Shown piece after piece: positions 9,001-11,837 of a stretch of 11,837 nucleotides of DNA (the first letter of the stretch is position 1; each line of letters opens with the position of its first letter). The position numbers were made by a program. This DNA is from a virus (Duplodnaviria; Heunggongvirae; Uroviricota; Caudoviricetes): the IMG/VR virus record IMGVR_UViG_647533159_000005; one strand, 5' to 3'.

Positions 9001-11837
9001 AATTAAACTCTAACATGCGTCCCTGTAAACAATAACAAGTAAGCAATCAGAGTCTTTCTAATTTACGGGAGGATACTCCCGTACTTTTTTAAAGGCAACG
9101 TGAATTGCAAAGTTTGTGATGTTTACGGGTAAACAGTAACGCTTTTGATATGAATGTTTTTATCTGGTTGCTGTTTTTATTCAGTTAATGTTTATAGGGA
9201 ATCTTTCAATGAAAAAAACACTGATTGCGCTGGCAGTAGCGGCTTCTGCTGTGGTATCCGGTTCTGCGATGGCATGGACTGCAAACGGTACGGGTAATTC
9301 TGTTGAGCTGGGCGGTACGCTGACTCCGGTAGCGAAGGTAACTCCGTGGGAAGTAAAAACGGGTGATGCGGTAACTAACCTTGATGCGCAGATTCAGAAA
9401 GGGCAAACCTCTGTCACTGTCGGCGTAAGCAAGGCAATCCCTGTTCTGGGCATTCGTACTACCGCCGTTCATAAAACATTCATGGGACAAGAAGGTATCA
9501 GCCCACAGATAAGCTACGGTAATGCTATTGATTTAAATCAGGGTAAACAAAGTGTTTTCCCTTTGACCCTCAGCGTTACGGACGATGGTGGAAATGAAAT
9601 TGGAACCTTAACCGCAAATATGTTTTCGGCTGGCATTGTTTCTCGCCTGAATTCTGGCGACATGTTTAGTACTTTCGCATACGAGAACAATGGTAATTAT
9701 GCATTTAAAGGGGGTATCAATGAATCTGTTGTCTCTTTCTCTGATGCTCTTTCACGCCTGAATGCACTGGATTCGACTCTTGCAGCGAATTTCGAGGAAC
9801 AGGGGGCTAGGGACGTAAGTCGCTGGCGTTCTCCGAATTTTACTAATTCAAGTGAGTCATATTCCGCTTTTTACGGCTCTGGTATTGAATCCGGTGGAAA
9901 TATCAATATTACTCTCAATGAGGCAGCATCTGGAAGCGGTGCAATTGTGTGGAAGGCTACTCTCCCTGTAACTGTTACCTACATGTAATTTAGCGTCTCG
10001 TTAAATTATTAAAACAAGCGGCGACGTTCCCCCGTCGTCGCTTTGTTTCCTTCCCTTCAGTAACACCATATCCCGCTAAAGCTCTGACATAAATTTTTGT
10101 TGTCTGGTTGCGAATTCTCACCCTGGTGAATCTCCTGCACTACCTGTCATTTTTACGCAAATACCCCTGGCATTTCTGAGCATGCCTGGCGCGAGTTTTG
10201 CGCAGAACGCCTTAACAATTCTTAACATCGATGCGCAGTTTTTACGGCCCGGGATAATGGTGGTTTTATACGCTATATAGTTCGTTATATGGTGAGCAAG
10301 AAACAGCCAAAATTAACATGGTAAAAATATATTTCGTTCAAATTCAACACATTAACAAGATGATGATGATGGATAAAAATTCAAAAATTAGCCGTTTTCC
10401 GCGCGTCCGTCGCCCCGCGGTAAGGGTACTCATCCAGGAGGACCCGCGATGATCGGGGCGTTTCATCAACGTCATGCGTTATGCCGGATTAACTGCGTAC
10501 GTAATACGTATGCACATCCCGGACAGGAACAGCCAGAATCGCGCCGCTGACGTTGTTTTTGTGGTTATCCCCCTGCCATGAGTCATCGCAATGGTTTTAT
10601 GCGTCCTGCGTTGCGCTGGTGGGCTTTTCCACCATTGGTGGGAAACATGGCACCACATCCACCAGCTTAAACGCGCTTCACCTTCCCGTTATCAGTCGCC
10701 ACAATTACGGCATTGTTTCCCCATCCTCTGGAGGCCATGACAATGACCGAAGCCGAAATGCTCAAAATGATTCGCCAGATTGCCGGGATCAGACCACCAG
10801 CAGGCAAACAGGAGGCCACGCAGCCGGACAGCGTTATCGCTGAGAACTATGCGCGTGTGGTGGCTGAGGTGATGCGCCGTGACGGTACTGAGCTTAACGG
10901 AGTGGATATGCGCGACATACGCACCAGGGTACTCGAGTTGTTGGCCTACCGTCGCCGCGTGCAGATGTACCGGGAGAGCGAGAAAAAGACTTACCAGTGG
11001 AAGAAGCCGGAGCGGTTACGGCGGTAACCAGTTGATAAAAAGGCTCCTCAATTTTGAGGAGGGTAGCTGGTGGCTGGCAGAATGTAAATTTACATTCTGG
11101 TGATTTAGTCATCTGATTTACCCGATGGCTTACCTTACCAGGCCATAGCGGATTACCGTGCAATGCGCACCATCGCCACCAATACGCACATCAAAACGAG
11201 GCTCACGGACTTTCACACGCTCCAGCAACTTATCACGAACCATAGCGTTTAGCGTCCTTCGTGTTGCCTCTATGTGATATCGCTGATATTCGGAACCATA
11301 GAGCAGCACTGTAACACCACGAACATCAAAAGGTGGATCTCCAGCCTCCACCCGCACCCAATCGCGATACTCAGGTTTGTAGAGTTCAAGGATCTGTTTT
11401 TTGTGCCTGGTCATTCTCATGCGTGCAACTCCTTATTGTGGGACAGTACTGTCATACAATAAGCTATACGGAAAATTATCAAAAGAACAGAAACCAACCA
11501 TTCAGATTTAACAGGTATCAATGGGATTATGCTTATGATGCATGATGACAAAGCGGAAGAACTGGAAGCGAAAGGTTTATGGCGACGGGCGGCTAATCGC
11601 TGGGGTGAGTTACTGAAACAGGCGGCAAGTGATGAAGCGCGTCAGTATGTAACGGAACGACGAACGGCATGCATCCGGAAGGCAACCATAACCCGGGAAC
11701 CGGAAAGAGACCTGATTTGTGCCATAAGAACCGCCGCCACAAAAACACTAACGGACATGGGGATCGACCTGAAAAAAGAAGATCCACTGCGGGGCATTCA
11801 GCACGGGCATACAAAGCAGGATAAACGCAGGAAGTAA

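Follow-up and report, generated by a model that had tools for sequence, protein, structure and literature searches.

The right end of the island

We analyzed an 11,837-nucleotide stretch of viral DNA (IMG/VR record IMGVR_UViG_647533159_000005, hereafter "the window"), in particular two small convergent genes near its right end, open reading frames (ORFs) A and B, and a 32-bp palindrome that lies at the 5' end of the leftward gene, ORF B. The window is a phage satellite of the phage-inducible chromosomal island (PICI) type integrated in E. coli; its size is in the ~10-15 kb range, it has int at one end together with alpA, a replication module and a gene for packaging redirection, and it is free of tail and lysis genes, all of them features by which PICIs are recognized. 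The original prediction for this DNA was that the two small genes might be a toxin/immunity or anti-phage pair that converges on hairpins able to terminate transcription in both directions, and that the palindrome could be either an operator or an RNA hairpin that sequesters a ribosome-binding site. The features that bear on these questions are as follows (positions are those of the window):

10743-11027, plus strand: ORF A, 94 amino acids, last gene of the rightward PICI operon, a member of phrog_1561
11034-11061, minus strand: intrinsic-terminator-like hairpin (stem-loop 11044-11061), a GC hairpin followed by a T-run
11078-11099, no strand: perfect 22-bp palindrome CAGAATGTAAATTTACATTCTG, conserved in E. 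coli relatives and located just past the stop codon of ORF B
11130-11420, minus strand: ORF B, 96 amino acids, predicted winged-helix protein of an unnamed family, predicted recognition helix at residues 47-62
11429-11434, minus strand: Shine-Dalgarno sequence of ORF B, AAGGAG, which precedes the ATG by 8 nt and has its first bases within a palindrome arm; AAGGA is conserved
11432-11463, no strand: 32-bp palindrome, candidate ORF B operator, with 16-nt arms that are complementary at 14 of 16 positions and no spacer
11535-11837, plus strand: second PerC-family gene (PF06069, E 9.6e-23; alternative ATG at 11529), divergent from ORF B
1-1242: tyrosine integrase
1774-1980: AlpA

Both small genes are well founded, as is the near-perfect palindrome that overlaps the ORF B Shine-Dalgarno sequence. 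ORF A, like ORF B, has a good Shine-Dalgarno sequence 8 nt 5' of its ATG (GGAGG at 10730-10734), both genes are annotated in RefSeq, as hypothetical proteins, in near-identical E. coli loci, and both are under purifying selection, with dN/dS (nonsynonymous to synonymous substitution) ratios of 0.18-0.23 for ORF A against four relatives and 0.09 for ORF B against an 87%-identical relative from which it differs at a synonymous proportion (pS) of 0.39.

The palindrome is strictly linked to the ORF B gene family

On the ORF B strand the family consensus of the palindrome is CTTAWTGTAKGATAG-NN-CTATCCYACAWTAAG, which can be described as two 15-bp half-sites CTTAWTGTRKGATAG; the palindrome abuts the ribosome-binding site. 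Each half-site has a free A/T choice at its position 5, as expected of DNA that a protein recognizes. In the window it lies in the 108-bp region common to ORF B and the second perC-like gene. Absence of the palindrome from related sequences had been named as an outcome that would count against its significance; the opposite was found. A scan of one genome per species gave 33 loci with an ORF B relative, in Buttiauxella, Erwinia, Serratia, Klebsiella, Enterobacter, Proteus, Yersinia, Hafnia, Providencia and other genera (one assembly is labelled Pseudomonas lundensis), whose proteins are 42-59% identical and whose DNA further upstream is unrelated. A 32-mer of the same class lies 9-14 nt 5' of the ATG in every genome locus across the Enterobacterales (36/36), far beyond what chance would give.

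The conservation is in the DNA itself. Among 35 non-identical rows the information content is 1.62 bits per position in the palindrome and 0.15 in the 40 nt upstream, and in the adjacent ORF B coding sequence it is 1.63, 1.61 and 0.93 bits at codon positions 1, 2 and 3. The 35 distinct sequences do not vary at palindrome positions 2-4, 6-9, 12, 22, 25-27 and 29-32, and the 32-mers of the window and of locus L002 are identical although the adjacent gene has the pS of 0.39 given above. In 348 kb of fetched loci the pattern TTAWTGT-N14-17-ACAWTAA occurs only beside an ORF B-family gene, and PICIs with ORF A and no ORF B do not contain it. A motif scan of IMG/VR gave 38 matches, all 38 of which are followed by ATG-AGA-ATG, the start of an ORF B-family gene; 33 of these genes are intact and five are truncated remnants in which the palindrome and 8-55 codons are kept and different genes follow.

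Some loci have more than one copy. L029 has two palindromes (3899-3928 and 3959-3988, the extra one 60 bp upstream), L041 has a tandem pair (819-847 and 860-888) and a third copy immediately after the stop codon of the gene (1350-1379), and L044 has an additional half-site, so that some copies are not beside a ribosome-binding site. Two or three copies per locus are reminiscent of multi-operator control by repressors. Distant homologues (31-42% identity) retain TTAATGTA...TACATTAA half-sites; for example, the 31%-identical fusion protein gene in L087 (below) has the site TTAATGTA-N16-TACATTAA about 48 nt before its ATG. For the ORF B relative in phage ZX1 the palindrome takes the variant form TCTTATTGACC-N12-GGTTGATAAGA, and inspection by eye shows it overlapping -35-like and -10-like hexamers (TTGACC and TAAGAT).

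We also compared the palindrome by eye with a CRP site, a LexA box, the Ogr/Delta TGT-N12-ACA site and an integron attC, and rejected each on spacing or sequence.

A probable DNA site rather than an RNA hairpin

The best-supported interpretation, from comparison of these sequences, is that the palindrome is a DNA site recognized by a protein rather than an RNA hairpin, because its arms are conserved in sequence and not merely in their ability to pair. The alternative, translational control by a hairpin in the ORF B leader RNA that sequesters the Shine-Dalgarno sequence, draws on the facts that the arms can pair (the 56-nt leader has a minimum free energy of -13.3 kcal/mol) and that the 3' arm includes the first three bases of AAGGAG. 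However, that energy is indistinguishable from those of shuffled sequences (z -1.5; 16 of 200 shuffles fold as well), and the mismatches in the arms are uncompensated: the pair at positions 5/28 is Watson-Crick in 20 of 35 sequences (T:T in 10 and A:A in four), and the pairs at 9/24 and 10/23 are so in 7/35 and 16/35, respectively, while their neighboring positions are invariant. The covariation score is 0.036, compared with 0.033 for shuffled alignments (144 of 500 scored as high), and 83.1% of cells are paired as against 82.9%. An Rfam search gave 0 matches, and some copies of the palindrome lack an adjacent Shine-Dalgarno sequence or start codon. We therefore consider this part of the original prediction very unlikely to be correct.

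ORF B is a predicted winged-helix protein

Profile and structure searches had been proposed as a check on both proteins. Structure prediction gives ORF B helices H1-H2-H3 followed by a beta-hairpin wing, the arrangement of a winged-helix fold. This AlphaFold2 model was built from 23 diverse sequences; an earlier run with only close homologues gave a predicted local distance difference test (pLDDT) score of 47 and was unusable. The most conserved protein segment of the family, E-A/S-T-R-R-T-L (ESTRRTL), lies in the predicted recognition helix.

By sequence the family stands apart. ORF B matches nothing in Pfam, PHROG or the PDB sequences, what NCBIfam (E 0.23) and PADLOC (E 0.027) return for it does not rise above chance, and none of the curated winged helix-turn-helix families (MarR, HTH_5/ArsR, PadR, Penicillinase_R and others) gave a significant match. 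The sub-threshold matches of other family members are to HVO_A0114 (1e-4), and then to PaaX, MarR_2, TrmB and IclR. A word-indexed search with ORF B found 17 clusters, exclusively from E. coli, and an exhaustive profile search, run over 1.84 billion representatives, yielded no more than 60 clusters at E <= 1e-3; Foldseek against viral models returned a single, nameless homologue, and a literature search by the RefSeq accessions of the ORF A and ORF B proteins found nothing. A tblastn search of 50,697 phage genomes gave one match for ORF A and one for ORF B, so neither family is typical of true phages.

Family members are 95-155 amino acids long, begin with MRMTxRKKxIL and share the core PPFDVxGV..LL...ESTRRTLExMVxDGLLERV...VxRYGLPG. 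Most also have a C-terminal tail of ~25 amino acids (GQCxVIRDxxGADNAIxGEYxRV), which the window copy does not have.

Two variants deserve description. Locus L003 (7748-8107, E. coli RM9975; WP_001350215.1) carries a full-length, 119-amino acid ORF B paralogue that shares the palindrome and belongs to a different island, near ykgL/thrW, where it convergently overlaps a PRiA4_ORF3-family gene; about 330 E. coli genomes have matches like this paralogue, at 60-80% identity. In L087 (1201-1803, protein P0190) a family member continues at its C terminus into a fused T5orf172/MUG113 (GIY-YIG-like) domain, which suggests that the winged-helix module could serve a nuclease as a DNA-targeting domain.

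A model for ORF B and its palindrome

The explanation that we prefer for the locus as a whole, and consider fairly probable, is that ORF A is the terminal gene of the PICI operon and that ORF B is a separate winged-helix gene whose palindrome is its autoregulatory operator. ORF B, an inward-facing gene near the non-integrase end of the island, would encode a small DNA-binding protein that most likely binds the 32-bp palindrome, probably as a dimer or higher oligomer; when bound, it would most likely repress its own transcription, and in islands of this subtype the divergent perC-like gene, at a distance of 65-71 bp, is probably influenced as well. The identity of ORF B as the binding protein, the repressive nature of its effect and the location of its promoter are inferences, the first drawn from the strict linkage of gene and palindrome together with the predicted fold. 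The operator alternative of the original prediction is thus the one that gains from the linkage to the ORF B family, the conservation at the DNA level, the modeled winged helix and the position of the palindrome between the two divergent genes.

Several observations weigh against this interpretation. A scan for consensus sigma-70 sequences finds no promoter for ORF B, and the sole candidate from a position-weight-matrix scan is TTGATA-15-TATTGT, read on the ORF B strand, whose -10 falls within the left arm of the palindrome and whose score is in about the top 10% of background; no -35 element is conserved in any register among 72 non-identical upstream regions. The sequence TAKGAT at palindrome positions 8-13 resembles a -10 element, and the window has a C at position 13 (TATGAC), which would weaken this most plausible candidate. 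The outer half-sites are ~23 bp apart, center to center; the spacing in dimer operators of the classical MarR or ArsR type is shorter, and the distance suggests that more than a simple dimer is involved. Conservation is lower in the right inner arm than in the left, and some of it may therefore stem from a promoter or leader role and not from symmetric binding. Finally, the most distant homologues hold only the left arm (L084 and L085) or nothing recognizable (L086).

The same difficulty with the promoter would fit an activator-dependent one, and the palindrome is kept in the five loci where the ORF B-family gene is truncated. Both points are in keeping with the palindrome being an operator for some other protein (a host factor, the satellite's AlpA or PerC, or a helper-phage regulator), in which case ORF B would be regulated and not the regulator. 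We regard this as unlikely. A factor that acts in trans on other targets would be expected to have further sites, yet the motif is never found away from the ORF B family (in the 36 genome loci, the 38 viral matches and the PICIs with only ORF A); moreover, the gene to which it is linked itself encodes a predicted DNA-binding fold, and the half-sites drift along with distant homologues, as in phage ZX1.

The truncated loci, in which different genes lie beyond the 8-55 retained codons, also raise the question of whether the palindrome and the first ORF B codons are a recombination flank or recombinase site for cargo swaps at the island end, with no regulatory role, and it is true that the DNA that flanks the ~400-bp ORF B unit is unrelated between loci on both sides. 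This seems to us quite improbable, since the palindrome stands at a constant 9-14 nt from the start codon and includes Shine-Dalgarno bases, its tandem copies are operator-like, no recombinase is consistently beside the unit, and homologous recombination through any conserved gene would give an identical pattern.

Three Proteus-type viral contigs, L050 (~6280-6700), L066 (~3904-4300) and L071 (minus strand), keep the palindrome and the first eight codons (MRMTQHSK* or MRMSQQNK*) and have the rest of the gene replaced, with an unrelated hydrophobic ORF of 111 amino acids ~140 nt downstream of the remnant. The pattern suggests cargo exchange with a breakpoint just inside the ORF B-family gene.

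ORF A and ORF B are unlikely to be a functional pair

The ORF A protein matches phrog_1561 (function unknown) with an E of 9e-48, and profile searches with it find 975 to 1439 clusters, every one of which is labelled "hypothetical" or "prophage protein"; Pfam, NCBIfam and PADLOC have no significant match, and a profile search of PDB sequences gave only noise and no solved relative. The searches thus placed ORF A in a family and left ORF B without a significant family match. ORF A-family proteins have a ~60-amino acid core and an invariant C-terminal YQWKKPxxRR, and shorter versions (61-66 amino acids) are present in other genera. In three other PICIs (L038-L040) ORF A is the last island gene and ORF B is absent; the gene that precedes it is a DUF1441 gene in a cos-type PICI, the large terminase gene in a PICI with its own portal and terminase genes, and the small terminase gene in the third. 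(The L039 gene that is convergent with ORF A was considered as a possible ORF B relative and rejected after checking.) Its terminal position without ORF B in these PICIs marks ORF A as part of the conserved core of the satellite, not as a partner of ORF B.

The idea that the two genes are nevertheless a two-gene toxin/immunity or anti-phage cargo module has some appeal: the 3' end of a PICI is a reported site of accessory and immune genes (PMC11364771), both proteins are small and unannotated, and an ORF A-family gene is convergent to an ORF B-family gene in about half of the loci with enough sequence. We nonetheless find it hardly credible. Convergent genes do not form an operon, and the genes of type II toxin-antitoxin systems are co-transcribed; here a terminator-like hairpin also lies between the two. 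Nor do the two occur together as such partners should, since DNA matches to ORF A are found in 546 of 5426 complete E. coli genomes but the whole 911-bp region in just 37 and the full trio in 37-45, and ORF A is terminal without ORF B in cos-type and capsid-forming PICIs. Neither protein matches the toxin, antitoxin or defense models of Pfam, NCBIfam or PADLOC, and PADLOC-DB v2 gave no significant defense match for ORF A, ORF B or 21 family members.

The spacing of the two families is also unlike that of a pair. The gaps between them are -3, 5, 17, 21, 72, 103, 112, 124, 576, 656, 814, 1242, 1508, 1691, 1799, 1829 and 2128 bp, and the longer ones are filled by unrelated cargo: a PRiA4_ORF3 protein, SocA/Panacea antitoxin genes, DUF2280 and ORFs without a recognized function. 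One gap ORF was read as a putative IS256-type transposase. Because the gaps vary and the longer ones hold such cargo, ORF A and ORF B look like the conserved flanks of an accessory slot, which in the window is empty (102 bp), and not like a functional pair. In Proteus/Providencia-type loci ORF B is present with no ORF A within 6 kb. In other genera, ORFs upstream of the palindrome look by eye like the housekeeping genes fis/dusB, hpt/can and rhaM/rhaD, which would place ORF B last in those islands, facing inward, at the end away from the integrase.

Among the cargo, SocA/Panacea-domain antitoxin genes are present in L006 (~4938-6067) and L008 (~1362-2398), each beside an ORF of 134-145 amino acids without a Pfam match, and these genes and their neighbors are likely toxin-antitoxin or defense modules.

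A broader and rather doubtful extension of these observations is that the ORF A and ORF B families are the two anchors of a 3' cargo/defense hotspot in a large class of PICI-like satellites of the Enterobacterales. ORF B, at the island edge, might then be a resident regulator of the cargo or of the perC-like gene, could also insulate the island from read-through, and would perhaps sense helper-phage infection through the C-terminal tail that has been lost here.

The ORF A-ORF B intergenic region

The 102 nt between the two genes fold better than shuffled sequences on both strands (z -2.9 for the plus strand and -4.2 for the minus strand). The hairpin at 11044-11061 is likely the ORF B terminator, since its T-run is on the minus strand only. 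It provides no U-tract for the plus-strand transcript, and ORF A has no canonical intrinsic terminator. Of the claim that hairpins here terminate transcription in both directions, then, the minus-strand half stands, with a canonical structure, and the plus-strand half does not.

The perfect 22-bp palindrome at 11078-11099 has a canonical U-tract on neither strand. A second exact copy of its 12-bp core, TGCAAATTTGCA / TGTAAATTTACA, is present in L002 (10237-10248 and 10317-10328) and L004 (2941-2952 and 3021-3032), which are O145:H28-type relatives, and alignment shows a third near-copy in the same intergenic region of both. The core is missing from all other fetched loci.

Other features of the island

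The gene content of the window is integrase, AlpA, DUF4222, two primase fragments, a single-stranded DNA-binding protein (SSB), a ProQ/FinO-like protein, the first PerC, a Nu1-like small terminase and cos-like repeats; the downstream part has an orphan K88-type fimbrial subunit followed by ORF A, ORF B and the second PerC. Other E. coli strains have near-identical islands, located at tRNA-Pro/yejM and at cspD/clpS, and in both positions the chromosome resumes right after the trio of ORF A, ORF B and PerC.

The gene for primase/replication is in two pieces: ORFs 4054-4713 and 4866-5363 match positions 239-398 and 739-894, respectively, of an 895-position primase profile. The replication module thus looks degraded, and this copy of the island may therefore not be mobilizable. 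An 89-nt inverted repeat (76% complementary) is present at 6999-7087 and 10337-10425, and the latter copy matches non-coding DNA of lambdoid phages (VT1-Sakai, Fels-1 and Stx2a phages); the pair is probably the satellite's two cos-like sites, as in EcCICFT073 (PMC6739421). A second inverted repeat, of 116 nt (76%) at 7838-7953 and 8746-8861, brackets the Nu1-like small-terminase gene (8056-8658), which could be an invertible or swappable cassette. The relative L001 has a "terminase small subunit" gene in the opposite orientation. The fimbrial subunit gene at 9188-9988 (PF02432, E 2.6e-52) is cargo, and the window has no usher or chaperone gene to accompany it.

Significance and relationship to known systems

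The analysis offers a testable model in place of the "hypothetical protein" labels that two terminal genes carry in a common class of E. coli satellites, namely a small, new winged-helix family for which a 32-bp candidate operator is precisely defined. The consensus of that operator marks the ORF B family specifically and, in many genera, also the non-integrase edge of the island, and the bracketing of variable cargo, including toxin-antitoxin modules, by ORF A and ORF B could aid the mining of satellite accessory regions. [quoted passage not shown]

An autoregulated repressor with a palindromic operator is a textbook mechanism, and the surprise in our model is correspondingly modest; neither the ORF B protein family nor its operator was found in the libraries searched, and the family is absent from Pfam, NCBIfam and PHROG annotation. 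Compared with the autoregulated winged-helix repressors of the MarR, ArsR/SmtB and BlaI/MecI types, ORF B has no significant match to the curated family models and is just 96 amino acids long with no evident dimerization or ligand domain, and its palindrome is long (32 bp, with outer half-sites ~23 bp apart). AbiEi-type winged-helix antitoxins repress their own operon through inverted repeats, and ORF B is like them in being a predicted winged-helix protein borne on a mobile element with a conserved inverted repeat at the start of its gene; one family member even had a weak AbiEi_4/AbiEi match, which was far below threshold. Unlike AbiEi, ORF B stands without an operon partner, is not followed by an AbiEii-like toxin gene and lacks a C-terminal antitoxin domain.

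At the level of the island, accessory and immune genes of PICIs have been reported at the 5' or 3' ends of the elements (PMC11364771), and the bracketing of cargo of variable length at the non-integrase end by the ORF A and ORF B families resembles the satellite hotspots at P4 psu-int and in the PICI 5' and 3' accessory regions (PMC11364771; PMC9122126). The ORF A- and ORF B-family anchor genes were not found in this literature on satellite accessory hotspots (PMC11364771; PMC9122126), and, unlike hotspots that carry cargo, the slot in the window is empty, its 102 bp being the intergenic region described above. Lastly, ORF B can be compared with the Stl master repressors of the Gram-positive Staphylococcus aureus pathogenicity islands (SaPIs). 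It differs from Stl in being at the opposite end of the island, in being present in only a subset of PICIs and in being unrelated in sequence and size, but it is like Stl in that it is a satellite-encoded, predicted DNA-binding protein at a divergent promoter region.

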